A DNA stretch of 64,000 bases from Gemmatimonadales bacterium (GTDB lineage Bacteria > Gemmatimonadota > Gemmatimonadetes > Gemmatimonadales > GWC2-71-9): positions 40,215 through 104,214 of the forward strand of contig JBFJCP010000016.1 in the NCBI GenBank assembly GCA_041615815.1, in the 5' to 3' direction. The notes beneath the pieces were generated by a model. The model was not told the DNA's origin, made no database searches, and worked only from the letters and a program-made list of their open reading frames with translations. Each line of letters begins with the position of its first letter. Position 1 is the stretch's first letter. The translations under genes were made by a program, and so were the position numbers. Below are positions 21,270 to 60,295 of the stretch, piece by piece.

Positions 21270-21881
21270 TCAATCACTCCGCTCGCTCGGCGACACCCAA
21301 TCCCGCGGCAATTCCCCCTTCCCCTCTGCCTTCGCAACGATGTCGGCAACACTCTGCACAATACGATCATCGAACTCCCGACCGCGTTGGCGAGCCTCGA
21401 CGCGCAACGCGCGCACGAACGGCCGCATCGATCGAGCCTTCCCGAGCCCTTGAACCGCGGTCATCAGAGCCTGCAGCTGGCGCTCCACCGCCTCGAGCTT
21501 CGGGACCGGTGCAACCACCCGCCCGTCGCGTACGGTCTCCGCGTCGCCCCACGCCCGAAGCAGCTCACGTGCGGACGCCACGATCTCGCCAAATGCCGAC
21601 ACCTCGAGGTAGGACTGCCACTCGCCGAGCCAGGCTGCAGCGCCTGCACTGGCCTCCCAATCTCGTTGGTGGGATTCGTCCAACTGCGCCACGCGCTCGA
21701 TCTCGGACCTGGGGATCCGCCATTCCCGACCGACTTTATCGCCTTTCAAATGGGGCGGCTCGGCAGCAAGCCAGTTCAGCACTGTATTGCGGTGCACACC
21801 CAGGAGCTCGGCTGCTTGCTGTGCGTTCAACGTGGACTGCTGGGCATGGCCAGCGCCATGCACTATACTATGCTTATTCAT
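21270..21881 (-). CDS. Excisionase-type (HTH_17/MerR-like) DNA-binding protein with helical C-terminal extension; start uncertain
   Basis: LNAQQAAELLGVHRNTVLNWL...LKGDKVGREWRIPRSEIER. Confidence 0.8.
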   Translation of the reverse strand: MNKHSIVHGAGHAQQSTLNAQQAAELLGVHRNTVLNWLAAEPPHLKGDKVGREWRIPRSEIERVAQLDESHQRDWEASAGAAAWLGEWQSYLEVSAFGEIVASARELLRAWGDAETVRDGRVVAPVPKLEAVERQLQALMTAVQGLGKARSMRPFVRALRVEARQRGREFDDRIVQSVADIVAKAEGKGELPRDWVSPSERSD

Positions 21882-21951
21882 ACGCACAGGATATGCATTT
21901 TGTTGTAACATGGCAAGGAGGAAACACTTACTGCCATGTTCCCTTCCCAGC

Positions 21952-22510
21952 CTAGATGGCGACCGCCGCGCTGGGCGGCGCGGCGGCCCGGAGCACTCCC
22001 GCTGATCCCACCACACCGGCGCTTCTCAGCAACACACTCAACGTCTCGAACGACGCCCGATGTGGCGACGAGCGGCGCCAGGCGAGAGCAACCGTGCGGG
22101 ACGGCTCGGGCCGTACAAACGGGGGCACCGCGAGGTGGCTCCCGTCCAGGCGGCGACCACCGGTCGCCATGAGCGGAAGCAGCGTCAGCCCTACGCCGTG
22201 CTCGACCATCTGGATCAATGTGCCCAGGCTGGTCGCTCGGAAGTCTCCCAACTCGCAGGCACCGGCCGCGTCGCAAATGACCGACGTCTGCTCCCGGAGG
22301 CAATGCCCGTCTGCGAGCAGGAGCACCTCGGCGCCGTGAAGATCGGCAGCTCGGAGACGCTTCCGGCGAGCGAGCGGATGGTCGGGCGGCATGGCGACGA
22401 CGAAAGGATCCTTGAACAGCCCGGTGGTCTCGAGATCGCCAAGCTCCGACTCCAGGGCAACGAGGGCGAGATCGACCTCGCCTTCCCCTACCAGCTCCAC
22501 GCGCCGCTGG
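21952..22510 (-). pseudogene. oxyR: 5'-truncated OxyR-type LysR regulator (effector domain only)
   Basis: LLLADGHCLREQTSVIC (redox Cys pair 9 apart), FRATSLGTLIQMV, GLTLLP; no HTH upstream before the divergent MFS gene. Confidence 0.75.
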
Positions 22511-22624
22511 TGGCCTCGGCTATAGCTCGCGGCGGTGATAGTTTTTCTCCGCATCGGCTTCGCCCCGATTCCAGTCCCATCACAAGGCGCTGCGCATTAC
22601 GACCAATCCCGGTCCACGTCGTAG

Positions 22625-24746: not shown

Positions 24747-26069
24747 TTATTTGATGAGGAGCATCCTCTGCACCACCGGATACAGCCATTCCACGCCACG
24801 CTCGGTGACCACGGCATCGTCTTCGATGGGGATTCGCACCTTGGCACCGTCCCATTCGGGGGCCTTGGTATAGGCAAAGAATTCAATGGAGAAGAGGTTG
24901 CTGGGTTTGATCTCGTAGGTCATGCGGACTGGATTGAAAAAGGCGATCGAGGGCCCGACCCCGTGCCCAAGATTCCCCACGGAGTGGGAGCCCACGACCA
25001 CGTCGGTCCGGTCGAGATCCGTGGGCCGGTTGAACTCGATGACGCCAAAGCCCCGCTGATCGAGAGCCCGGTTGATCAAGTGCCACGTTTCCCCGGCCGT
25101 GCGGCCCGGCTTGATCGTCGCCTTGACGACGTCCCGGACGGCAAGGGCCTGCCGAAAGGCGTGTTGCAGCCCCGGCGGGGCGGCGGTCTCGCCGTCGCGC
25201 AGCACGTAGGCGATGCGCTTGACGTCCGTGCACAAGTTCAAGTAACACACCCCCCAATCGATCATCAGCAGGTCTCCTCGCTGGATGATCCGATCCGAGG
25301 AGACGGCTTCGATCCCCGACGGTCCGGTGATGTAGACCGATGGCATGTCGAACGACGATCCCAGACCCCGCACCAGCAGCTGATCCCACATCCACCACGC
25401 GACATCCTCCAGCGTCGTGACCCCCGGCGTGACGACCTCGTTGGAGAACGCGCGTTCGGCAATGGTCCGGGACATCTCGCCGGCCTCACCGAACGCCACG
25501 AGTTCAGACGCCACACGCCGCGAGCGAAAATCCGAAATGAGCTCTTCTGCGGATACCACTCGCACCGCGTAGGTTGCACCCAACGCTTCGACGAGCGCCT
25601 CGTAACTCGTGTGCGAGAGCCCGTCCGCGGCTCCGATGGCCTGGGACATGTTTACCCCGATTCGCGCCGGATCCCTCACGGCCACGAACGCGCGAAGATC
25701 GAACGCGCCCCCGATCACGGTGTCATAGACACCACACCCCTCGAGCATCCGACCGCCCACTCCAGCAGCCACCCGCTCGATCCGCTCACCGCCCCGATCT
25801 GTGAAGATGTAGTAGGCCGTCCCACCCACGTATCCTCGTCCCAAATCCTCCCACAGCGGGTCCAACAGGCCTTCCTTCATCACGGTGATCCACATATCGA
25901 TTCCGTTTTCCCGCATGGCCTCAGGCAGGACGAGGTCGAACTTGTCCGCTCGAATCTGACACAGTCGTTCCCAGCGACGACGCGATTCCTGGGCCGTCGC
26001 GGGCTCGAGGGCGATGACGCCTGACAGCGTCATGAAGATCACGATCGACCAAACCCAGCGAGCCATCAC
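24747..26069 (-). CDS. Secreted M24 family (Xaa-Pro) metallopeptidase
   Basis: Signal peptide; IDWG...TDVKR, HSVG...HGVGP, SIE, IEDD metal ligands. Confidence 0.88.
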   Translation of the reverse strand: MMARWVWSIVIFMTLSGVIALEPATAQESRRRWERLCQIRADKFDLVLPEAMRENGIDMWITVMKEGLLDPLWEDLGRGYVGGTAYYIFTDRGGERIERVAAGVGGRMLEGCGVYDTVIGGAFDLRAFVAVRDPARIGVNMSQAIGAADGLSHTSYEALVEALGATYAVRVVSAEELISDFRSRRVASELVAFGEAGEMSRTIAERAFSNEVVTPGVTTLEDVAWWMWDQLLVRGLGSSFDMPSVYITGPSGIEAVSSDRIIQRGDLLMIDWGVCYLNLCTDVKRIAYVLRDGETAAPPGLQHAFRQALAVRDVVKATIKPGRTAGETWHLINRALDQRGFGVIEFNRPTDLDRTDVVVGSHSVGNLGHGVGPSIAFFNPVRMTYEIKPSNLFSIEFFAYTKAPEWDGAKVRIPIEDDAVVTERGVEWLYPVVQRMLLIK

Positions 26070-26268
26070 GGTCCTCCCCTCCTGAGGGAATCTCGGCGCG
26101 AGCCTGCAGCCAGCGGTGTCACAATCTACGACAGCGCTGTCCCGCGCGCCTTCCGGCTCCCCCTACCTCGGCACTCGTCGCCATTCCCTTTGGCGTGGGG
26201 CCCACGAGATGCTAATTTCCCGCCAGCAGGACGAGCGTCACTTCGGCAAAGACGAGAGGCGAAGCTTC

Positions 26269-26649
26269 GTGAGCGTCATCGAGAGCTTCAACGAGGTCGT
26301 GGAAATCGCACGATCCCTGGGCCATGCGGAGTTGAAGCGTGCTCTCCGAGCGGTTCGCGAGGAGCTCAAGGTCCTTCTAGACGAGATGAAGGAACTGCGC
26401 GAACAAAATCGCGAGCTCCTGACCCGTCTCGAAGCGGAGGGAAAGACGATCGCTCCCAAACGGAGCGTGAAGTTCGAACATGGCACATACTGGCAAGTGG
26501 ACGACGCCGGCATCATGCGCGGCCCTATGTGCGCGAAGTGCTGGGAATCACGCCAGGAGCTGCACCGCTGCATGAAACAGATGCAGTATTTCTTTATGTG
26601 TTCCAAGTGCGGTGCCGTGGCACGGCTCCCCGGCGTCAAGCCGGCCTGA
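26269..26649 (+). CDS. Coiled-coil + zinc-ribbon hypothetical protein
   Basis: Heptad helix followed by GPMCAKCWE...FMCSKCG; GTG start after GAGAGG. Confidence 0.7.
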   Translation: MSVIESFNEVVEIARSLGHAELKRALRAVREELKVLLDEMKELREQNRELLTRLEAEGKTIAPKRSVKFEHGTYWQVDDAGIMRGPMCAKCWESRQELHRCMKQMQYFFMCSKCGAVARLPGVKPA

Positions 26650-26653
26650 GTCC

Positions 26654-27073
26654 GTGGCCGCTCGCCCGTTCACGCCGGCGTGGGCTGTCAACCTCCGCGA
26701 TGCCATCAACGCCAGCGATGAATACCGAGAGGCCGGACGCACCTGGGCGTGGCCCCTGGCCCTGGTGCTGGATCCCCACCCGAACCTGGATTATCCCGAT
26801 GCCGTTGCGGTGGTCCTCGACCTCAAAGACGGGATCTGTCACCGCGTAACGTGCGAGCCGGCCGTCTCCGTGGACGCCCCATTCACGGTCCGGGGCGAGT
26901 ACGAGGTCTGGAAACGCGTCATGCTCGGTCAGCTCGACCCCATCGCCGCCATCGTACAAGGCAAGTTGCGTCTCACCGGCTCGCTCGGCACCGTGGTGCG
27001 ACATGTTGGCGCCGCCCAAGCGCTCGTCGAGTGCGCAACGCGAGTTCCCACCGAGTTCCCAGACGAGCGGTAG
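26654..27073 (+). CDS. SCP2 sterol/lipid carrier domain protein
   Basis: FTPAW...INAS..Y...W, LDLKDGIC, W..VM.GQLDPIAAIVQGKLRLTG. Confidence 0.85.
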   Translation: MAARPFTPAWAVNLRDAINASDEYREAGRTWAWPLALVLDPHPNLDYPDAVAVVLDLKDGICHRVTCEPAVSVDAPFTVRGEYEVWKRVMLGQLDPIAAIVQGKLRLTGSLGTVVRHVGAAQALVECATRVPTEFPDER

Positions 27074-27090
27074 CCAGCCACACACCCACT

Positions 27091-27106
27091 TGTGACAAAC
27101 ATCACA
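27091..27106. promoter_or_regulatory. CRP/FNR-family (or Rex-like) box
   Basis: TGTGA-CAAACA-TCACA, exact consensus. Confidence 0.65.
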
Positions 27107-27202
27107 GCTCGCGTTTGGACCTCGTATTTGTGGTCCGAACGTTGGGCGACTGCACCGTTCTCATGCATGGTCTCTGGGCAATTCGCCACACGCATGCAAC
27201 AA

Positions 27203-27218
27203 TGTGACAGCTGTCACA
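27203..27218. promoter_or_regulatory. CRP/FNR-family (or Rex-like) box
   Basis: TGTGA-CAGCTG-TCACA, perfect 16-bp palindrome. Confidence 0.7.
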
Positions 27219-27330
27219 AAGCGTCTAAGCTGAAAGGGTTTCGCGACTTTCGCGTCCGCGTCGTCCACCGTTTCGGGGCACCCGTCTTGCAACGTCGCAG
27301 CGGCACACGCACCACACGGGGAGCAACCAC

Positions 27331-28005
27331 ATGTTGAAGGTCACAAACCACCCCCAATGGGTCGAGACGCTCGATGCTGCACTCGAGCCGTTGCAGGCGG
27401 AGATCCTCGACTTGCCGGTCGTCGTTCGCGCATCCGACAACACGCTCGAAGAAGCGATGATTCGGAATTTCTGTGTTGAATTCTATCCGATCATCCGCGA
27501 CTTCCCCTACTGGCTAGAGGTTCTGATGAAGCGGTCACCCACGGAAGGTCATGCCTTCTTCCGTGACAATATTCGGGTGGAGCGACGCCATGGCGCGATG
27601 TGGCGTGCTATGGGCGATGGGTTTGGTGTCCCCTCGGAGTGTTTCGAGGGCTACATCCCATCCAACCCGGCGGTGAACACGTTTCACAACTTCCTGACGG
27701 ACATCGGGGCCAACGGTCCGTTTGCGACGGCCGTGGCGGCCACCAACTACGCCGTCGAGGGAGTGGCGCAAAAGATCGCCACCAAGGCCCTGCAGGGCCT
27801 CCAGTACAACGAACGGCTTGGCAAGCGCGGTCGTTGGTGGCTCGAGGAACACGCCAAGTACGACGACGAGCACCCCATTCTGGCAATGGAGCTCATCAAG
27901 TCGTGCATCGACGAACACGATGCGGAGATTTCCAATCTCCACGATGCTTCCATGCGAAGCCTCGAGTTTTTGCACGACGCGATGAAAGAGAGCTACCACG
28001 CGTAG
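27331..28005 (+). CDS. undA: Heme-oxygenase-like diiron oxidase (TenA/PqqC fold), UndA-like fatty acid decarboxylase
   Basis: NIRVERRH (E84/H87), AATNYAVEG (E143), WLEEHAKYDDEHP (H174/D178/H181) match my recollection of Pseudomonas UndA motifs NIRVELNH, AATNYAIEG, WLKMHAQYDDAHP. Confidence 0.75.
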   Translation: MLKVTNHPQWVETLDAALEPLQAEILDLPVVVRASDNTLEEAMIRNFCVEFYPIIRDFPYWLEVLMKRSPTEGHAFFRDNIRVERRHGAMWRAMGDGFGVPSECFEGYIPSNPAVNTFHNFLTDIGANGPFATAVAATNYAVEGVAQKIATKALQGLQYNERLGKRGRWWLEEHAKYDDEHPILAMELIKSCIDEHDAEISNLHDASMRSLEFLHDAMKESYHA

Positions 28006-28010
28006 CCCAC

Positions 28011-29906
28011 ATGGCCGGGACTGCTCGCCGCCCCTCGCGTAAGGACTCCGCCAAAGCCCGTCATCCCACGCGCGGACGTTTGGCCCGGAGTATCGTGGCC
28101 AGTTCCCCTGATGCCATCATCGTCACGGGAATGGACCGCCGAGTGCTGGATGCCAACGACGCAGCAGCAGAGTTGTTTGGCCGAGCCCTCGAGGATCTGA
28201 TTGGTGCCGAGGTCGATGGGCTGGTGATCGAGGAGGAACGCGGGGTCGTCGCGCGTCACGAACGCGAAGCGCTCCGCGGCTTCCCACAGCGATACGAGAC
28301 CAGAATTCTCGTGGGTGACCGGACCCAGCGGACCGTGGCGGTCGCCTCCGCAGCGCTGCAGGAAGATGATGAAGTCGTCGGAACCGCAGCCACCTTGCGG
28401 GACATTACCGATGACCATCTTGCATACGAGAAGATCGCCCGATCCGAGAAACGATATCGGAGTCTGATCGAGTCGGCGAGCGACGCGATCGTGACCCTCG
28501 ATGGTGCGGGCCGGTTCACCACCGCCAATCAAGCCGCTGCCGACATCTCGGGCTACGATCGAACCAAACTCGTCGGGCTATGGTTTGCCCCGATGGTCCC
28601 GGAAAGCGAGCTGCCCAAGGCACTCAAGGAGTTTCAAAAGGCCCTCGCCGGCGAAAGCGGCCAGTTCGAGACCGCGTTCTTTCGCAAAGACGGCGAAGTC
28701 CGATACATCTCCACCACGTACTCCTGCACGCGTCCGGGCGAAGAGGTGTTGTGCCTCATCCGTGATGTGACGGAAGAACGCCAGCTCCAGGAGCAGTTGA
28801 TTCAGTCCGAGAAGATGGCCGCAATCGGCCAGTTGGTCAGCGGCGTTGCCCACGAGCTCAACAACCCGCTGGCGAGTGTATCGGCCTTTGCGCAACTGAT
28901 GCTAGCTGACCCGAAGCTATCGCAAGAAGGCCGGCAATCCGCGGAGATCATTTCGAAAGAGTCGCAACGCGCGGCTCGAATCGTCAACAACCTGCTCACG
29001 TTCGCTCGCCAACACAGCGCGGAGAAGGTGTCCGCCGATATCAACAAAGTGCTGGACGACACCCTCGAGTTGCGAGCATATGAACTCAAGGTGCGCGGTA
29101 TCGACCTCGTGCGAGATTACGATGAGGCCGTGCCGCTTACGATGGCGGACGTGTATCAGCTCCAGCAGGTCTTTCTCAATCTGATCACCAACGCCGAACA
29201 TGCCATGGAAGCCACGGACAGGCAGCGTCATCGGCTGACGGTACAAACGCGGGTGCACGAGCACACGATCCGCGTGACGATTCAGGACACCGGGAGCGGC
29301 ATTCCTGCAGGGTCGCTCGAGCGCATCTTCAACCCCTTCTACACGACCAAACCCACCGGAGCCGGCACGGGATTGGGGCTCTCGATCTCCCTGGGAATCG
29401 TCAGCGAGCACGGGGGACGGATTTGGGCCGACAACGGCCTCAAGGGGGGTGCGCGATTCTACGTCGAGTTGCCGATCGTGCAGCCTTCGTACGAGGATCT
29501 CCACCAGGAGAATCCGAGCATCACCGTATCGGTCCCGGGCCTTCGCGTCCTCGTCGTCGATGACGAGGAGCCGCTCCGCATCGCGCTCGAGCGCTTTCTC
29601 AGCGGCGAGGGCCATTCGGTACACGCGACGGGGAGTGGAACGGACGCGCTGGAGTGTGTGGCCACGCAAACGTTCGATGCGGTGATCCTGGACATGCGGA
29701 TGCCCGACATGTCGGGAAAACAATTCTTCGAGCGGCTACGCGAACGATGTCCCGAGCTCGCGTGCAGAGTCATTTTCACCACGGGCGACACGGTGAGCAC
29801 GGAGCTGCGGACGTTTCTCCAGCAATCCGGCCAGCCGTTTGTGGCCAAGCCGTTCAAATTCGAAGATATCGTTCAGGTGTTGCCGCGAGTATCAGCCGCC
29901 GCCTGA
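28011..29906 (+). CDS. Cytoplasmic hybrid sensor histidine kinase PAS-PAS-HisKA-HATPase-REC
   Basis: Two PAS domains (SPDAII...RDIT; ASDAIV...RDVT), GVAHELNNPL, NLITNA, DTGSG, GTGLGL, REC DMRMP; no TM; ATG 5 bp after the undA-like stop. Confidence 0.93.
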   Translation: MAGTARRPSRKDSAKARHPTRGRLARSIVASSPDAIIVTGMDRRVLDANDAAAELFGRALEDLIGAEVDGLVIEEERGVVARHEREALRGFPQRYETRILVGDRTQRTVAVASAALQEDDEVVGTAATLRDITDDHLAYEKIARSEKRYRSLIESASDAIVTLDGAGRFTTANQAAADISGYDRTKLVGLWFAPMVPESELPKALKEFQKALAGESGQFETAFFRKDGEVRYISTTYSCTRPGEEVLCLIRDVTEERQLQEQLIQSEKMAAIGQLVSGVAHELNNPLASVSAFAQLMLADPKLSQEGRQSAEIISKESQRAARIVNNLLTFARQHSAEKVSADINKVLDDTLELRAYELKVRGIDLVRDYDEAVPLTMADVYQLQQVFLNLITNAEHAMEATDRQRHRLTVQTRVHEHTIRVTIQDTGSGIPAGSLERIFNPFYTTKPTGAGTGLGLSISLGIVSEHGGRIWADNGLKGGARFYVELPIVQPSYEDLHQENPSITVSVPGLRVLVVDDEEPLRIALERFLSGEGHSVHATGSGTDALECVATQTFDAVILDMRMPDMSGKQFFERLRERCPELACRVIFTTGDTVSTELRTFLQQSGQPFVAKPFKFEDIVQVLPRVSAAA

Positions 29907-29923
29907 ACGACCGGTCCACCATA

Positions 29924-29968
29924 CCCCGGGGAGGCCCTCTCGACGGCAGTCGCCGCGCCTCTCCGGGG
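29924..29968. terminator. Hairpin between convergent kinase and HD-GYP genes
   Basis: CCCCGGGGAGGC...GCCTCTCCGGGG stem with inner CGAC-GGCA-GTCG. Confidence 0.45.
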
Positions 29969-30060
29969 ATCCCCCTTCCTCAGGCTCGATCAACCTCCGC
30001 GTCTTTCAACCTTCCCTCGGTCCGACGTTTTCCTTTCCGACCTTCCCACTTGCTGACGTT

Positions 30061-31143
30061 CTAACTGACCCCCACACCGGCGATCCCGCCGGGCACCGAT
30101 CGGCGTGGCTTGGCCGGCGCCTCGATGGGGAGTCCCTGGAGACCTGGATAGGCGTCCAGAAAGGCAGCCACGACCGTGGCATCGAATTGCGCCCCAGCCT
30201 GAGCGCGCAGTTCGGCGACGGCGTCCGCCGGGGGGACCGCGGGCCGATAGGGCCGACCCGAGGTCATCGCATCGAAGCTATCGCACACCGTGACGATCCG
30301 GGCATGCAGCGGAATGGCGTCGCCGAGGAGTCCATCGGGGAAACCACGGCCATCCATCCGCTCGTGATGCGAGCGCACAATGGCCAGGGCCGCGGGCGCA
30401 TTCTTGAACAATGGCGCGAGAATGCGTTCGCCGATAACGGTGTGTTGCGTGAGGTGCTCATATTCTCGATCGGTGAGCCGCCCGGGCTTGAGAAGGACAG
30501 CTTCACGCACGCCGATCTTGCCGACATCGTGGAGCTCGGCACCGAGCTCGATGAGCTCCACATCCAGCTCGCTCAAGCGCAGGGCCCGGGCCGTCTGGCC
30601 CGCATAGGCGCTCACGCGCGCCGAATGGCCGCGGGTGTAGGGATCTTTCGCTTCGAGCGCATCGACGACCGCCTGAACCCCTTCGAGAAACAACTCCTCG
30701 ATCCGTCGGGCTTGCTGCTCGACGAGTTCGGTCAAGTGGCGTTGGTAGCGGCGATTCTCCACCACGAGGCGGCGCCGTTCGAGCGCGTGGGCGATCCGCG
30801 CACGCACCTCTTCGATCTGGAACGGTTTCGTGATGTAGTCCATGGCCCCGCGCCGCAGGCAGGCAACGGCGGTCTCGAGTTCGGCCACCACCGTTACGAG
30901 AATCACCGCAACATCGGGCCACCGCTTGTGGATCAGGGTCAGGAGAGTCGCTCCGTCCAGATGCGGCATCCGCAGGTCGGTGAGCACCATCTCCACCGCC
31001 CGCCGCTCCAACACTTCCAGCGCTTCCGCCCCCGAGGCGGCCTCGAGACAGCGATACCCCGCCCCGCCCAGCACACGCACGAGCGAGCGCCGCAGATCAG
31101 GTTCGTCATCGACGACCAGACAGGTGATATCGGGCTGGAGCAT
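30061..31143 (-). CDS. Response regulator REC + HD-GYP cyclic di-GMP phosphodiesterase (RpfG-like)
   Basis: REC LVVDDE/TDLRMP/KP; YTRGHS, HDVGKIG, HHERMDGRGFP. Confidence 0.93.
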   Translation of the reverse strand: MLQPDITCLVVDDEPDLRRSLVRVLGGAGYRCLEAASGAEALEVLERRAVEMVLTDLRMPHLDGATLLTLIHKRWPDVAVILVTVVAELETAVACLRRGAMDYITKPFQIEEVRARIAHALERRRLVVENRRYQRHLTELVEQQARRIEELFLEGVQAVVDALEAKDPYTRGHSARVSAYAGQTARALRLSELDVELIELGAELHDVGKIGVREAVLLKPGRLTDREYEHLTQHTVIGERILAPLFKNAPAALAIVRSHHERMDGRGFPDGLLGDAIPLHARIVTVCDSFDAMTSGRPYRPAVPPADAVAELRAQAGAQFDATVVAAFLDAYPGLQGLPIEAPAKPRRSVPGGIAGVGVS

Positions 31144-31246
31144 CGCCTCAGGATAGGAGGGGGCGGGTTCGTATTGCTGTGCGGTCTTTCACAAGAGCCC
31201 CCAACCCCCCGGGGGGGCGGCCCTCGCCCAGGCCGCGGCCCCGAGT

Positions 31247-33049
31247 ATGTTTGGTGCCGTGTCCTCCACCTCCCGCATTGCCGCGCGCCAGCGGGCATTC
31301 GCGGCCTATCTGAGTCGACGGGCCGACGCGGTACTGGCCTACCTGACCCAGCGCGGCATCGACGAGACGACCCTCCTCCTCGGGTTCGCCGTCGCCATTG
31401 GCACCGCCGTCGGCCTGGCCGTGATCGTGTTCTACAAGTTGATCGATCTGGCCCAGGCGGCTGCTCTGCGCGTCGCAGCGGGGCTGACGGGCCTCGGGAG
31501 CCTCTCCATCGTTCTGGTGGTGCTCGTCGGGATCGTGCTCACCCGTCTCCTCATCCGCTACGGCGCCGGCGATTCCGACGGCGAGAACGTGGCCGACGTG
31601 ATGCGGGCCGTGGCCAAGCGGGGGGGCGTCATCGACGCCTGGCGCGTAGGCGTCAAGACCGCCGGGGCCGCGGTGGTCATCGGTACGGGGGGATCGGTGG
31701 GGGCCGAGGGACCAGTCGCCGTGGCCGGGTCCGCCCTGGGCTCTCGGATTGGCCGGTTCTTTCGCTCCGGGCCCGGCCGGCTCAGACTCCTCGTCGCATG
31801 CGGCGCTGCTGCGGGAATCTCTGCCGCCTTCAACGCACCCATTGCCGGCGTCTTTTTCGCCTTGGAGAAGGTGATCGGCACCTTCGGCGTGCATGCCTTT
31901 CCGCCCATTCTGGTGGCGTCCGTCATCTCGGCCGTGATTTCCCGAAGCGCCTTCGGCGCCACGCCGGTCATTGAGATTCCCATGGAGTACGGGGTAGGGT
32001 CCCCGAGCGAGTTCGCGCTCTACGCCCTCCTCGGCATCGCCACCGGTGTCGTGGCGGTCGGGTATACCAAAATCGTCCACGGAACCAATGATGTGTTCAA
32101 CCGATTCGGTGCCCTGTGGCAGCGTCTGCTGCTGGCGGGGTTGGTGGTGGGCGGCCTCGACTGGTTTTTCCGCGACGACTTATGGGGCCGCGGCCACGAA
32201 ACGTTGACCATCGAGATCATCGGGACGCGGCCGGCCCTGTTCCTCTTGGCCCTCGCGCTGGGAAAGCTCGTGGCCACGGCCGTGACCATGGCGGCGGTGC
32301 GGTGCGGCGGCGTGTTCACCCCGGCGTTGTTCATCGGTGCCACGCTCGGTGGTGGCCTTGCCGTAGGCACCGAGCTCGTGGTTCCGGGACTCGATCTCGT
32401 GCCCGAAGCGTGGGCCTTGGTCGGGATGGCGGGGCTCGTGGCCGGCAGCACGCACGCGCCGCTCACGGCCATCATGATCGTGTTCGAAATGACGAGCGAC
32501 TACGCCTTGATTCTCCCGCTGATGCTCTGCGGGGCCATTGCGTACATCACGGCGCGGCGACTCCACCCTCACTCGATCTATTCCGAGTGGCTGGTGCGGC
32601 GTGGTGAGACTATCGAATCGGGCCGCGATACGGCCGTGCTCGAGCGCTTGACGGTTCGCGAATCGTACAACCAGAACCCTCACACCATTCACGAGGGTGC
32701 GGACGTGAGTCACATCGTCGCCGCAATTGGCGCGAGCTCACAGACGGAGTTCCCCGTGGTGGACGACGAGCGGAACCTGGTGGGCATGATCTCGTACGAC
32801 GACCTCCGGGCAGTGCTCAGCGATACGGATCGTTATGCGCCGATCATCCTGGCCGGGGACTTAGCGAGTCGACCGTACGAAACCGTCGTCCCGAGCGACA
32901 CGCTCCGTGCGGCCCTACAGCGGCTGGAGGTACGTGGCAGCCACTACCTGCCGGTGGTAGAGGACGGGAACGGGCAACGCCTGCTGGGTCTCATTGGCCG
33001 GCAGAACATCTTGGCGGCCTACGACCGAGCGTTGCTCAGGCCGGATTAG
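31247..33049 (+). CDS. ClC chloride channel / H+ antiporter with CBS domains
   Basis: GSVGAEGP, AAFNAPIAG, GGVFTP, SIY motifs; C-terminal CBS pair. Confidence 0.92.
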   Translation: MFGAVSSTSRIAARQRAFAAYLSRRADAVLAYLTQRGIDETTLLLGFAVAIGTAVGLAVIVFYKLIDLAQAAALRVAAGLTGLGSLSIVLVVLVGIVLTRLLIRYGAGDSDGENVADVMRAVAKRGGVIDAWRVGVKTAGAAVVIGTGGSVGAEGPVAVAGSALGSRIGRFFRSGPGRLRLLVACGAAAGISAAFNAPIAGVFFALEKVIGTFGVHAFPPILVASVISAVISRSAFGATPVIEIPMEYGVGSPSEFALYALLGIATGVVAVGYTKIVHGTNDVFNRFGALWQRLLLAGLVVGGLDWFFRDDLWGRGHETLTIEIIGTRPALFLLALALGKLVATAVTMAAVRCGGVFTPALFIGATLGGGLAVGTELVVPGLDLVPEAWALVGMAGLVAGSTHAPLTAIMIVFEMTSDYALILPLMLCGAIAYITARRLHPHSIYSEWLVRRGETIESGRDTAVLERLTVRESYNQNPHTIHEGADVSHIVAAIGASSQTEFPVVDDERNLVGMISYDDLRAVLSDTDRYAPIILAGDLASRPYETVVPSDTLRAALQRLEVRGSHYLPVVEDGNGQRLLGLIGRQNILAAYDRALLRPD

Positions 33050-33648: not shown

Positions 33649-36600
33649 TCACGATCCCTGCTCGATCGAGGTGTGCCACGCGTAATCAGCCAACGCCATG
33701 ACGGAGAGCTGCGGGTTCACCCGCACCGTGGTCGGAAAGATGCTCGCGTCGCACACGAACAGGTTGTCGTATCCGTGGACCCGAAACGTGCTGTCCACCA
33801 CACCGATGCGGGGATCGTCACTCATCGGGTTGCCGCCCTGAGGATGTGACGAAGTGAGCTTGAGGTCGTCGGGTCGCCGGATGTGGCGCTCCAGGAAACG
33901 CCCGATCTTTCCCGGGTTGATGCGCCCCCGCTGCGCGTAGTCGCGAGCCGAAAGCTCCATGTCGCCGACTCCGGGCACGTACACGGCCTCGGCGCCGGCA
34001 GCGAAATACGTCTGGGCCAGCATACCCAGTCCCCGTCGCATGGTGGCAAGGTCCTCCTGCGTCATCCGATAGGCAACCGGCCCGAACCAGTCCCGCAGCG
34101 GGGACCATCGTTTGACTCGCCCGTTGGGAGCCGTGCCGATCAGGACACCCGCCGCGGCAAACCGGGGGTACATGCGCATCCGCTCGAAGTGGGTGGCGAA
34201 CCATCCGGGCAGCGCGGCGGCGAATGCCATTGGCGGGAGGAAGTCGCTCTCCAGGAGGTATTCTCCCGAATCCACGAACGCCCCCATTTGGACACCGTCG
34301 AACCCATGCACGGTCTTTGGAAACCGGGCGGGCATGGCCACGCCCGCATTGAAGGAAAAGCGGCGTCCCACCGGACCAACGACGCCGCTCTTCATCAAGA
34401 GCACACTGGACCCGATGGCGCCACCGGCCAGGACTATCTGCTTGGCCCGAACCGATAGATGTCTCCCATCCACGTGGACCGCGCGTACGGCGCGAGCGTT
34501 GGCCCGCGACAGGTCGAGGCGCACGGCGTGACACCCCGGGACGACCCGCGCCCCACACCTGATGGCATCGGTGATGAAGGTCTCGAGCATCGAGTACTTG
34601 CGTTCATAGGGGCACCCGAAGTTGCAGTATCCGCACCCGGCACACTGATGGTAGTTCTTCCGAAACAGATTGGCCGTAAACGTCCGATCGCCCATCCCGG
34701 CATCGAGGAGGCGTTGCCACCCGTCCAACAGCACACGGCCGTTCTCACCGGCCAACTCCGGGGTGATTCGTTGAACACAGAGCCGCCGTTCCACCCGCTC
34801 GAATGCGTCGCGGAGCCGCGCGCGATCCACCAATGCGCCGAGGTCACGCCAGTCGTCGAGCGTGTCCGGGCCCCCGGGACGCCGCAGATCCGGATCATCG
34901 ACCATGCGAAAACAGACCGCGTTGCTGATGACCGTCGACCCACCCAGGCACCGTCCCTGGAGGATGGTTCTGTCGAAATCGACGGTCGTCTGCAATCCGT
35001 CTTCCTTGTACAGCCCCGCAACCATGCGTCCTTCGTCATGACTGATCTCGCTGGCATGCACGTACCGCCCCTCTTCGAGCAGCACCACGTCTCGGCCCGC
35101 GGCAGCAGCATGAGCGGCCACGACGGCACCACCGGCCCCGGAACCGATGACGCAGAGGTCGCACACGATCGCTTCGCTGACGGGATCCTCGAGTCGGAGC
35201 CGCGAAAGCCCCAAGCGGTCGGGTCGACCGGTGCGGTGGCGCGTGCGCGTGCCCATCGGCTCGAACCCGACGCTCGCATGCACACGTTGGTCACCGTAGT
35301 ACCCTGCCAGCACGAGCGCGCGGATCTTTGCGAGATCGCGACCCGGCCCCCACGGTCTACGCCGCGCCAGTCGCCGCTGCAGCAGCCGCCGTCTCGCCGT
35401 GATGTCCATCCGGGAGAACGGCCGAGGGATGGGTAGTGGCAGGAGGTACTCGATGACAAACAACGCGAGCCTCAGGCGACGTGCACGTTTGGAACGGATG
35501 CGCGCGAGTTGCTGCTCGACATTGGAGGCAATCTCCTGCGCGGTGAGCACTTCCTGTTCGCCTTCAATGAAGACTTCGGCAAACTTTTCGACGGTCCGCC
35601 GCTCGCGCCGAGAGAGAAAGGTACGCGGCTTACGCAGGCTTCGAGGCTGCAGAATCACACTTGGAACGGGTTCGTTTCGCTCATCGTCCCACTCGAGGAA
35701 ACTGAGGTCGTACTCCTCATCAATCCGCTCGAAGTGCAGGAAGGTGTATCGCACCTGACCGGTGAGGTCGGGACGGTCTTCCTGCCAGAGTGGGGTCCAC
35801 GTCCCGGCGTTGACGTAGAGCACCTGGCTTTGACCGACGGATGGGAGCAGCTGCACGTCGGGGCGATGGGTGTGGCCCAGCACGCCGTAAACACGCCTTG
35901 CGGATACGGGAAACTCGAGCCGCTCCACGGCGGTGTAGACGCGCTCGGCAAACAGGTCCTCGCCCATCAACGGTTTGCGGCCCGGAATCGCATCGCGGAG
36001 GACATTCGTGGCATACACCACCGCCGGTCCAAGTAGCGCCAGGGCCAGAATGGTCTCGATCGGCATGCTGTGCCAGCCAGGGCCGAGGAGTGCGACCAGC
36101 AGCAGGAGGAGAATGAGACCGGCCGCGAGGAACGGGACGGCCAACGATCCGAAAAACAGGACGAATGCCCAACGCTCGCGACGCCACTCGGACTTGGTGA
36201 CCTTGCGGAGCAACGGGATACCCCGCCGGAGGAGCTGCGGGGCCTTCAGCGGATGGCGGCGAACGACGGCCCACAACAGCCGCTGCACGGGTTTGATGTT
36301 GTCGAGGAACGGCTCCAGACCGGCCAACGTGTTGATGATGTACCGGTGTACGAACGTCGCGAGCGGCAACCGCAGTTCGGTGCCTCCTTCGAGCGTCGGC
36401 GCACCTTTGACCTGCGAGACGGCATCGAAGCGATGGCCGTGCTCGATGTGCACGTTGTCGACATCCAACCCATGGTCAGCGAAGCGGACATTGTGCTGCA
36501 CGTCGGCCTCGCGATGGGAACGGGCGATGGCCCGTCGAATGCCTTCTTGCACGAGAGGCCAGTGAAGCTCGAGATCGTGATTCCCATGCACGAACGTCAC

Positions 36601-37089
36601 GCGCCCACCACGGTGCACCCACCAACCCAGCGCGTCGAAAAAGGCCCGATGCCCCTGGGCGACGAGCATCAACTTCCAGAGGGACTTGTAGTCGTGGGTC
36701 CGGAGACCAAACTGGCGCTCCCACGGTGACACCGCGGCTTCGAGCTCGGCGGCGCTGCGCTCGACCCCCAGGGCGCTGAGCTTGTGGCTCCAGTCCTCGA
36801 ACTCCGCCCGCTCGGCGGGACAGCGCGTGACACGAACGAAGTCGAAGGTATCCCCGTTCAGGACGAGGTGGGCCGGACCCGTCCGCCGTGGATCGTGGTA
36901 CTCGAGGAAGCGCTGAAACGCGCCATCCGCGAAGAACTTCTCCGCCTGCTGGTAGCGCCCGGTGCGCGGGTCTCGTCCGGCACCCAAATGGAGGTCGCTG
37001 ACGACGAGGAGCGTGCGAGCGGGAGGACTTACTCGCTCGTGCTCGGGTTGGTCGGCGCGCGCGCGGCTGCGTCTGAGTCCCTTGGTCAT
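33649..37089 (-). CDS. Calcineurin-like metallophosphoesterase (with 2 TM) fused to a GMC oxidoreductase (long-chain alcohol oxidase-like)
   Basis: SDLHLG, NGDTFD, GNHD, EHGH, GHTH; then IGSGAGG, GGSTVISN, CAGCGYCNFGC, SSHPQGG, DASIFP...NPQ. Confidence 0.88.
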   Translation of the reverse strand: MTKGLRRSRARADQPEHERVSPPARTLLVVSDLHLGAGRDPRTGRYQQAEKFFADGAFQRFLEYHDPRRTGPAHLVLNGDTFDFVRVTRCPAERAEFEDWSHKLSALGVERSAAELEAAVSPWERQFGLRTHDYKSLWKLMLVAQGHRAFFDALGWWVHRGGRVTFVHGNHDLELHWPLVQEGIRRAIARSHREADVQHNVRFADHGLDVDNVHIEHGHRFDAVSQVKGAPTLEGGTELRLPLATFVHRYIINTLAGLEPFLDNIKPVQRLLWAVVRRHPLKAPQLLRRGIPLLRKVTKSEWRRERWAFVLFFGSLAVPFLAAGLILLLLLVALLGPGWHSMPIETILALALLGPAVVYATNVLRDAIPGRKPLMGEDLFAERVYTAVERLEFPVSARRVYGVLGHTHRPDVQLLPSVGQSQVLYVNAGTWTPLWQEDRPDLTGQVRYTFLHFERIDEEYDLSFLEWDDERNEPVPSVILQPRSLRKPRTFLSRRERRTVEKFAEVFIEGEQEVLTAQEIASNVEQQLARIRSKRARRLRLALFVIEYLLPLPIPRPFSRMDITARRRLLQRRLARRRPWGPGRDLAKIRALVLAGYYGDQRVHASVGFEPMGTRTRHRTGRPDRLGLSRLRLEDPVSEAIVCDLCVIGSGAGGAVVAAHAAAAGRDVVLLEEGRYVHASEISHDEGRMVAGLYKEDGLQTTVDFDRTILQGRCLGGSTVISNAVCFRMVDDPDLRRPGGPDTLDDWRDLGALVDRARLRDAFERVERRLCVQRITPELAGENGRVLLDGWQRLLDAGMGDRTFTANLFRKNYHQCAGCGYCNFGCPYERKYSMLETFITDAIRCGARVVPGCHAVRLDLSRANARAVRAVHVDGRHLSVRAKQIVLAGGAIGSSVLLMKSGVVGPVGRRFSFNAGVAMPARFPKTVHGFDGVQMGAFVDSGEYLLESDFLPPMAFAAALPGWFATHFERMRMYPRFAAAGVLIGTAPNGRVKRWSPLRDWFGPVAYRMTQEDLATMRRGLGMLAQTYFAAGAEAVYVPGVGDMELSARDYAQRGRINPGKIGRFLERHIRRPDDLKLTSSHPQGGNPMSDDPRIGVVDSTFRVHGYDNLFVCDASIFPTTVRVNPQLSVMALADYAWHTSIEQGS

Positions 37090-59650: not shown

Positions 59651-60271
59651 CTATTGATTTCGTAGGGCAAAGCTCAACGCTTCGAGCTCAAGGGCCATGT
59701 TGACGGTTTTGACCGTCACGCTGTCTGGCACCTTGAGGCGAACCGAGGCAAAATTGAGGATCGCGCGAACGCCGGCTCGCACCAGGCGGTCGGCCACGCC
59801 CTGGGCGCTCTCGGCCGGCGTGACAATGATGGCGATGTCGACCGGGTCCTTGACCAGGTCGCCCTCCAGATCTCGACTGTCGCGCACGCGGAGGCCGTTC
59901 CACATCTTCCCCGTCTTCGTGGCGTCGGAATCGTACACCGCGGCAATGTGGAAGCCGCGCTGCGTGAACCCGCGGTACTGGGCGAGCGCGCTTCCCATCT
60001 TTCCGGCCCCGATCACGGCCACCCGGTACGTACGCCTCAGACCGAGAATGTCGCGCAAACGGGAGACGAGCTCCGGGACCGAGTACCCCAGCCCGCGTTT
60101 GCCGAACGATCCGAAGAACGAGAGGTCCTTGCGCACCTGGGCCGACGTCGTGCCCCCGCGGGCTGCCAGCGCTTCCGAGCTCACGGTCTCCATCCCCTGT
60201 TCCTCGAATTCCTCGAGGAACCGCAGGTAGAGGGAAAGCCTCCGAACGGTGGACTCGGCGATCTTGGGCAT
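59651..60271 (-). CDS. rex: Redox-sensing transcriptional repressor Rex
   Basis: RRLSLY...SSEALA...QVRKDLSFFGSFGKRGLGY; GAGKMG; ILNF. Confidence 0.97.
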   Translation of the reverse strand: MPKIAESTVRRLSLYLRFLEEFEEQGMETVSSEALAARGGTTSAQVRKDLSFFGSFGKRGLGYSVPELVSRLRDILGLRRTYRVAVIGAGKMGSALAQYRGFTQRGFHIAAVYDSDATKTGKMWNGLRVRDSRDLEGDLVKDPVDIAIIVTPAESAQGVADRLVRAGVRAILNFASVRLKVPDSVTVKTVNMALELEALSFALRNQ

Positions 60272-60277
60272 CGAATT

Positions 60278-60295
60278 TTGTGAAAACTTTCACAA
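60278..60295. promoter_or_regulatory. Rex operator (autoregulation), overlapping the rex promoter
   Basis: TTGTGAA-AACT-TTCACAA perfect consensus 6 bp before the rex ATG; minus-strand TTGACG-18-TACATT overlaps it. Confidence 0.9.

Follow-up and report, generated by a model that had tools for sequence, protein, structure and literature searches.

A conserved pairing of an UndA-like diiron oxidase with a soluble PAS-PAS hybrid kinase in Gemmatimonadota

Which of the genes around an UndA-like oxidase in a Gemmatimonadales bacterium belong together, and what might pass between them? The window analysed here is a stretch of 64,000 nucleotides (assembly GCA_041615815.1, contig JBFJCP010000016.1, positions 40,215 to 104,214 of the forward strand), in which genes for an SCP2 lipid-binding protein, a predicted heme-oxygenase-like diiron oxidase (HDO), a hybrid kinase with two PAS domains and a REC-HD-GYP protein lie side by side. 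A first-pass annotation of the sequence had read all four as a signalling circuit with RpfF/C/G-like logic, in which a volatile alkene made by the HDO is sensed by the kinase and translated into turnover of cyclic di-GMP (c-di-GMP). We find that the HDO and the kinase very probably constitute a dedicated two-gene signalling module. This two-gene unit is robust, whereas the SCP2 and REC-HD-GYP genes are lineage-specific local additions.

In 77 of 80 related loci the HDO is immediately followed by the kinase gene, the other three being two contig ends and one locus of a second-copy type. The two genes are separated by 5 bp in the window, as the first-pass annotation stated and the reading-frame coordinates bear out, and in 64 of the 69 pairs measured the stop and start codons overlap by 4 bases. 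Across 401 genomes of the phylum, an HDO orthologue (E < 1e-78; seven weaker matches, three of them CADD-like in the tree described below, were set aside) is present in 30 and a close kinase orthologue in 29. Both are found in 28 of the 31 genomes that have either one. The tallies for the kinase, and those given below for the HD-GYP protein (206/401) and the second HDO family (16/251), include one unpublished genome (G175), on which no other result depends.

Loss of the kinase is accompanied by changes in the enzyme. Two genomes of the same genus (G001 and G002; 91% and 94% complete) retain the HDO in the same place, with the downstream genes coming immediately after it, and no kinase match was found in them, either at the locus or elsewhere; the SCP2 and HD-GYP genes are also absent. 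The G001 enzyme has lost a ligand (E84G), and that of G002 the conserved Y177. All ligands are intact in 116 of 120 close homologues, and the four that have lost a ligand (gene context is available for one) all fall within the 14 best matches. Judging from these substitutions, the enzymes of the kinase-less sister genomes appear to be decaying.

A second line of evidence comes from an exchange of partners. In another family of the phylum, weaker kinase matches occur in 26 genomes, six of which were fetched. Five of these encode a paralogous kinase, in three followed by a sigma-54 regulator, while the sixth (G244) encodes an orthologous kinase (53%) directly after a protein of 306 amino acids (aa; L238:6626-7546). 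The latter has no Pfam match, and aligns with the UndA-like profile in HHalign (probability 97.5, E 8e-12, 17% identity), with its own E-x-x-H, E and H...E-x-x-H set. In proteins of this second HDO family, the first ligand helix is followed by ∼40 additional residues, and the last ligands are spaced further apart. A search with the 306-aa protein returned 292 homologues; the family is unannotated and sits before the same kinase in Gemmatimonadaceae (G244, L255-L271), where it is present in 16 of 251 genomes. The kinase, 54–63% identical to that of the window, lies directly downstream in 13 of the 16 loci examined (of 17), while two of the others are cut off by contig ends and one retains a deletion remnant of both genes. 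The kinases that follow the two HDO families form a common group in a quick tree, to the exclusion of the paralogues. No PDB relative was found with the second-family profile, and the fold assignment rests on profile comparison and an Atlas lead, because single-sequence folding gave a predicted local distance difference test score (pLDDT) of only 35. The swap to so distant an HDO would be more readily reconciled with a diffusible cue than with a fixed interface.

The 224-aa enzyme of the window had been assigned to the UndA type on account of the ligands E84, H87, E143, H174, D178 and H181. The reading frame and Pfam give exactly these residues, which are in register with the six ligands (3His/3carboxylate) of UndA. 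Its closest PDB sequence matches are UndA (4WWJ, E 5.6e-16; range for UndA/PSPTO1738, 6e-16 to 7e-15), compared with E 1e-4 for CADD. The AlphaFold (AF2) model has a pLDDT of 96, and its top matches in Foldseek and VIA are HDO/TenA-fold proteins, with VIA Z scores of 27–28 to UndA/PSPTO1738 versus 25.5–25.8 to CADD; superposition on UndA gives a root-mean-square deviation of 2.1 Å over 221 residues (Z 27). The model, the fold searches and a PF14518 match above cut-off agree on a heme-oxygenase-like helical bundle. The protein scores 26.1 bits against the CADD family model TIGR04305, for which the cut-off is 200. Four residues before H174, W170 aligns with W190 of UndA (assuming a two-residue offset in PDB-chain numbering) and is the sole invariant column across 44 diverse relatives; W190 is the radical site of UndA (PMC13108848, in excerpt). 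A tree of 72 proteins places the Gemmatimonadota enzymes in one clade (support 96) within the UndA-like radiation, and CADD-like proteins on a long separate branch; it was built with FastTree only, with a midpoint root and an unresolved backbone, and its clade labels "beta" and "PilZ" are our own. By sequence, fold and tree, the protein is thus an UndA-like HDO, whose nearest characterised relative is UndA and not CADD, PqqC or TenA, and the alternative identities as CADD or PqqC were rejected. Iron binding, substrate and product are predicted by analogy. With identity to UndA at 20–28% and varied chemistry among HDOs with the same ligand set, alkene synthesis is a plausible prediction.

The description of the kinase as a soluble PAS-PAS hybrid also holds. 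Pfam places PAS domains at residues 33–134 and 148–258, HisKA at 273–335, HATPase at 380–489 and REC at 513–623. The conserved H281, D561 and K613 are present, no histidine phosphotransfer (HPt) domain was matched by Pfam, and there is no transmembrane stretch (top 19-residue hydropathy 1.02). The kinase frame remains open for 137 further codons upstream of the ATG, overlapping the HDO in another frame; since the length of the overlap differs among relatives, this is probably a high-GC artefact. Comparison of its PAS pair with that of a GGDEF-EAL partner gave a generic match. Complex prediction for the HDO with a PAS-PAS fragment scored 0.00 in two runs with controls not folded, and is evidence neither way. 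The REC-HD-GYP protein contains D56, H205-D206 and HHERMDGRGFP (with F for Y in HHExxDGxGYP; PF13487, E 5e-33), and is a putative c-di-GMP phosphodiesterase by its motifs. Its gene, recovered from reading frames and Pfam, and the preceding lipid-carrier gene both lie as first described (Table 1).

Table 1. Features of the HDO-kinase locus, in window positions
Feature	Position	Strand	Length	Remarks
SCP2 lipid-binding protein	26654-27073	+	139 aa	PF02036, E 1e-7
CRP-like (or Rex-like) palindrome 1, upstream of HDO	27091-27106			perfect TGTGA-N6-TCACA
CRP-like palindrome 2, upstream of HDO	27203-27218			perfect TGTGA-N6-TCACA
HDO, UndA-like	27331-28005	+	224 aa	PF14518, E 1e-13
PAS-PAS-HisKA-HATPase-REC hybrid kinase	28011-29906	+	631 aa	Pfam domains
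REC-HD-GYP, putative c-di-GMP phosphodiesterase	30061-31143	-	360 aa	REC-HD_5; convergent with the kinase

The gene layout is not an assembly artefact, since it is covered by single contigs from two sequencing runs: one from X1 (possibly the source) spanning 25500-31600, and one from X5 (a separate study) spanning 26919-30883 and differing by 3 letters and 1 gap. Close homologues carry Gemmatimonadales labels, consistent with a host of this order. The SCP2 gene starts 4 bp after a hypothetical gene for a 146-aa protein (26209-26649, +), which has a coiled coil and a C-terminal CxxC...CxxC, with a weak YabA-like match (E 0.004), and which is also found at the same locus in G001 (52%). Elsewhere in the window, positions 33649-37089 (-) encode a 1146-aa protein with a metallophosphoesterase-like N-terminus and a GMC oxidoreductase, present also in G001 and G002, while 21270-22554 contains an excisionase-like HTH gene and a LysR substrate-binding domain, apparently without its N-terminal HTH.

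A 257-bp spacer separates the SCP2 gene from the HDO, and contains the two perfect palindromes listed in Table 1, which the first-pass annotation did not mention. TGTGA-N6-TCACA corresponds to the consensus site of CRP, and a similar site is bound by Rex. The motif occurs at 21 sites in the genome, compared with 0–3 for the seven other spacer lengths tried, and all 21 sites were scored as intergenic. Sister genome G001 retains both palindromes upstream of its HDO, and a version of the second with two mismatches is found upstream of the HDO in many soil relatives. The genome encodes two CRP-family proteins. A perfect palindrome resembling those of the HDO also lies at 60279-60294, just upstream of a gene (59651-60271) that we take to be rex-like, and the regulator could for this reason be either CRP-like or Rex-like. 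Other genomic sites precede an ATP synthase alpha-like gene, among others. The position of the palindromes in the SCP2-HDO spacer, together with the genome-wide intergenic enrichment of the motif, suggests that the enzyme and kinase genes are transcribed from a regulated promoter of their own, not shared with SCP2. No sigma-70 site was found in a promoter scan, and terminator matches were at chance level.

The outer two genes of the proposed circuit have a different history. The claim of a conserved linkage stands for the enzyme and kinase and fails for their neighbours, as neither the SCP2 gene nor an HD-GYP orthologue adjoins the pair in any of the 80 related loci. SCP2 homologues occur in 67 of 201 genomes of the family, and in other gene contexts in all 11 loci viewed, and SCP2 was rejected as a conserved circuit member. 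The HD-GYP orthologue, present in 206 of the 401 phylum genomes, was rejected likewise, and in all 10 loci fetched its gene is flanked by metB and glmM. This site is empty in G000, G001 and G002, and the gene therefore moved before the genus split. The move may reflect recruitment to the kinase, or it may have been fortuitous, with one later deletion. Another REC-HD-GYP gene (35–38%) is divergent beside 4 of 16 second-family HDO-kinase loci. The RpfF/C/G-like logic is retained as far as a putative UndA-like synthase paired with a PAS-PAS kinase, without the HD-GYP clustering.

Beyond the phylum, relatives of UndA are tied to c-di-GMP and kinase genes in other lineages, in line with the association with signalling genes from which the circuit had been proposed. 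The adjacency of undA and rbdA in Pseudomonas that had been invoked there is supported by PMC10614000 (in excerpt, citing Rui 2014), according to which undA is always beside rbdA. In six records of a plasmid collection, GGDEF-EAL, GGDEF or kinase/regulator genes lie beside the homologue in five: in Pseudomonas, Burkholderia and one Caballeronia a PAS-GGDEF-EAL gene precedes it, in Acinetobacter a GGDEF gene is divergent from it, and in a second Caballeronia record it comes after a kinase-kinase-regulator run. The homologue of the last record is near chemotaxis-gene remnants. A Burkholderia plasmid (L140:1565-5708) has genes for a Crp/Fnr regulator, a PAS-GGDEF-EAL protein and an UndA-like protein in a row, between transposition and recombinase genes.

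Among more distant loci (the best 80 of 535 metagenome matches, with two clades dominant), a signalling domain lies within 1.5 kb in 70 (a raw rate), and eight of the other ten have <400 bases upstream. The classes are GGDEF-EAL (45 loci), seven-transmembrane (7TM) kinase (19), fused PilZ (16) and NarL-type (5). REC-HD-GYP is encoded downstream in three loci, and a PilZ-LuxD-thioesterase-methyltransferase gene upstream in two. PilZ-HDO fusions are also among the nearest full-length relatives in a 50% representative library. In L145, L159, L161 and L162, such a fusion is followed by a 7TM-GAF kinase; L145 and L159 add REC-sigma54 and REC-HD-GYP, and in L159 and L161 the PilZ-LuxD thioesterase-methyltransferase gene precedes the fusion. 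These loci have a fuller Rpf-like layout than that of the window. A search for further fusions (7999 candidates of 532–2000 residues) yielded two that were rejected: an HDO-kinase fusion (P0273), a single member with no contig that breaks inside the HDO and PAS1 like a gene-calling join, and an ATPase-HDO fusion (P0274), a single member with no contig on record. Hints of lipid metabolism consist of the LuxD-type thioesterase, the SCP2 gene of the window, and a START-like gene behind two second copies of the HDO: L038, flanked by receiver-domain genes, and L041 are each followed by a START/polyketide-cyclase lipid-binding gene. Another second copy (L082), of the Gemmatimonadota type, is on a 5-kb contig of a bin labelled archaeon, and is possibly mis-binned.

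What, then, does the module do? With a chance that we place close to, and slightly short of, even, the HDO makes a diffusible lipid product and is coupled as a synthase to a cytoplasmic sensor, RpfF/RpfS-like in logic. Such a product would best explain how two distant HDOs can work with one kinase, and how relatives of UndA can be associated with unrelated receptors. Expression of the operon would be driven by a CRP-family promoter. The HDO would bind a free fatty acid at its diiron centre and oxidise it with O2, in the manner of UndA, producing a small, hydrophobic, diffusing molecule, which may be a 1-alkene (about an even chance if the enzyme is such a synthase) or another oxidised lipid. 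The cytoplasmic PAS domains would read the product and set kinase activity, and H281 would hand the phosphoryl group to D561 in the REC of the same protein, from which it would reach an output regulator whose gene lies elsewhere. The REC-HD-GYP protein encoded beside the kinase in this genus may be that output, leading to c-di-GMP turnover.

Several observations weigh against a diffusible lipid signal of this kind. The Gemmatimonadota enzymes form their own FastTree clade, not nested with Pseudomonas UndA, to which their identity is 20–22% in structural alignments and 27.7% in tblastn, and HDOs sharing the 3H/3C set catalyse very different chemistry (PMC13108848, in excerpt). The PAS domains of the kinase match no fatty-acid-binding PAS of the PDB by sequence, and give generic PDB matches only. 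Most of the 77 loci are close kin, with the same upstream padR gene in 73 of 81; the pair occurs also in three other flanking contexts. One genome (G158) has the kinase and no HDO match, and second HDO copies with all ligands (L038, L039, L041, L082), of a kind carried by some soil genomes, have no adjacent kinase. In a rough specificity score, the receiver of the adjacent HD-GYP protein comes only 12th among 57, behind two HD-GYP paralogues from other parts of the genome (2nd and 4th); the score uses five receiver positions described in the literature and is weak evidence. Finally, PMC8846402 (in excerpt) lists RbdA among O2 sensors, with a heme PAS.

This last point agrees better with the HDO being a sensor subunit, whose labile diiron centre would register O2, iron, redox state or fatty-acid occupancy and regulate the kinase through direct contact, any alkene being a by-product. 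The near-universal translational coupling suggests 1:1 synthesis, and the upstream palindromes resemble the site before rex. HDO clusters are described as labile, with a flexible helix 3 (PMC13108848), non-heme diiron hemerythrin domains as O2/redox sensors of c-di-GMP enzymes (PMC8846402), and the RpfF-RpfC system as having synthase-sensor contacts (PMC4504480). We nevertheless consider a sensor subunit unlikely: the same kinase pairs with two HDO families that are only 17% alike; UndA relatives serve sensors as unrelated as PAS-GGDEF-EAL proteins, 7TM-GAF kinases and NarL pairs, for which one interface is improbable; and the UndA radical-relay tryptophan is invariant, as expected of a catalyst. 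The contrary assignment, in which the kinase senses something else and the HDO is its co-regulated output (an effector for lipid or amino-acid tailoring, or a source of a volatile aimed at other organisms), would accommodate the solitary kinase of G158, the PilZ fusions that place the enzyme downstream of c-di-GMP in other lineages, and the antagonistic roles of 1-undecene (PMC11776017, in excerpt). It leaves unexplained both the distant HDO in the same slot before the same kinase and the decay of the enzyme once the kinase is gone, and seems to us improbable.

We give equally little credence to the original four-gene circuit, a special case of the diffusible-signal reading in which SCP2 would supply the fatty acid, the HDO make a 1-alkene, and the PAS kinase sense it and phosphorylate the adjacent HD-GYP protein. 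The joint absence of SCP2, kinase and HD-GYP from the two sister genomes with a decaying HDO speaks for it, as do the departure of the HD-GYP gene from its ancestral site before the genus split and the occurrence of different REC-HD-GYP genes near second-family pairs and in the distant loci. The SCP2 and HD-GYP genes are nevertheless never adjacent in the related loci, HD-GYP orthologues occur mostly without an HDO, and a single deletion of neighbouring genes may account for kinase and HD-GYP having been lost together; the kinase moreover lacks an HPt domain, and the HD-GYP receiver reaches only 12th place as a partner. Least probable of all, and by a wide measure doubtful, is that the pair reflects inherited synteny without functional link, the HDO being a CADD/PqqC-like housekeeping enzyme. 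Most loci do come from few related soil genera, and many database names of the homologues read "PqqC", but the pair is maintained in four or more flanking contexts and is co-inherited as counted above, the CADD score and tree position are far from that family, and the refilling of the slot by another HDO family already largely refutes this explanation.

Compared with known systems, the pair resembles UndA (4WWJ, 4WX0, 6P5Q) with RbdA in the HDO fold, the six ligands, the W190 equivalent and a PAS-containing signalling neighbour. It differs in sequence (20–28% identity, separate clade) and in its partner, a soluble PAS-PAS hybrid kinase encoded downstream rather than a PAS-GGDEF-EAL protein encoded upstream. 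As in RpfF-RpfC-RpfG, genes for a hybrid kinase and an HD-GYP regulator lie in a cluster with that of a candidate synthase, and as in RpfS and RpfR, the input is a cytoplasmic PAS (PMC4504480, in excerpt); RpfS, a soluble PAS kinase, binds the diffusible signal factor DSF (same excerpt). However, the enzyme is a predicted O2-dependent diiron oxidase and not a crotonase like RpfF, the kinase is soluble and without HPt, unlike RpfC with its transmembrane input and HPt (PMC4504480, in excerpt), the HD-GYP link is not conserved, and there is no homology of signal chemistry. The HDO-PAS-kinase module is thus like a synthase-receptor pair in the way it would work, and is not a member of the Rpf systems. 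With CADD/PabS-type HDOs (1RCW, 8VA9; TIGR04305) it shares the fold and the 3H/3C ligand set, as reflected in the Z scores given above; the sequence match is far weaker and below the family cut-off, the branch is separate, and no folate genes were seen in the loci. VcBhr-DGC and Bhr-HD-GYP also link a non-heme diiron centre, predicted in the case of the window HDO, to c-di-GMP signalling (PMC8846402, in excerpt). Theirs are fused sensor domains of another fold, whereas the HDO is free-standing and shows catalytic-type conservation.

The conserved HDO-PAS-kinase module in Gemmatimonadota is apparently undescribed. Literature searches over titles and the beginnings of abstracts found no paper dealing with an HDO paired with a kinase, with UndA in Gemmatimonadota or with a bacterial receptor for 1-undecene; surveys of gene neighbourhoods, or assays of distant homologues, may be reported in Rui 2014 and Zhang 2019. 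A term search of bioRxiv 2020.02.11.943704 gave no mention of TenA or oxygenase. 1-Undecene is reported to act as an aerial communication molecule in Pseudomonas, and the role of RbdA is left there as planned work (PMC10614000, in excerpt). It is conceivable, though more doubtful than probable, that UndA-like diiron oxidases are synthases of widespread and unrecognised O2-gated lipid or alkene signals, read in each lineage by a receptor of a different kind, be it a GGDEF-EAL protein of the RbdA type, a 7TM-GAF kinase with PilZ feedback or the soluble PAS-PAS kinase of Gemmatimonadota, which accepts two unrelated HDO families. If so, the two PAS domains of that kinase would represent the first tractable receptor of a volatile alkene in bacteria. 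About a dozen of the >10,000 members of the HDO superfamily have been characterised (PMC13108848, in excerpt), and the HDO-kinase pair, being co-inherited, co-lost and re-paired with a second HDO family, offers a clean system for asking what these enzymes make and what reads the product. If the diffusible-signal reading is true, it would give part of the superfamily a signalling role, and would add very divergent candidates to the alkene-forming enzymes.

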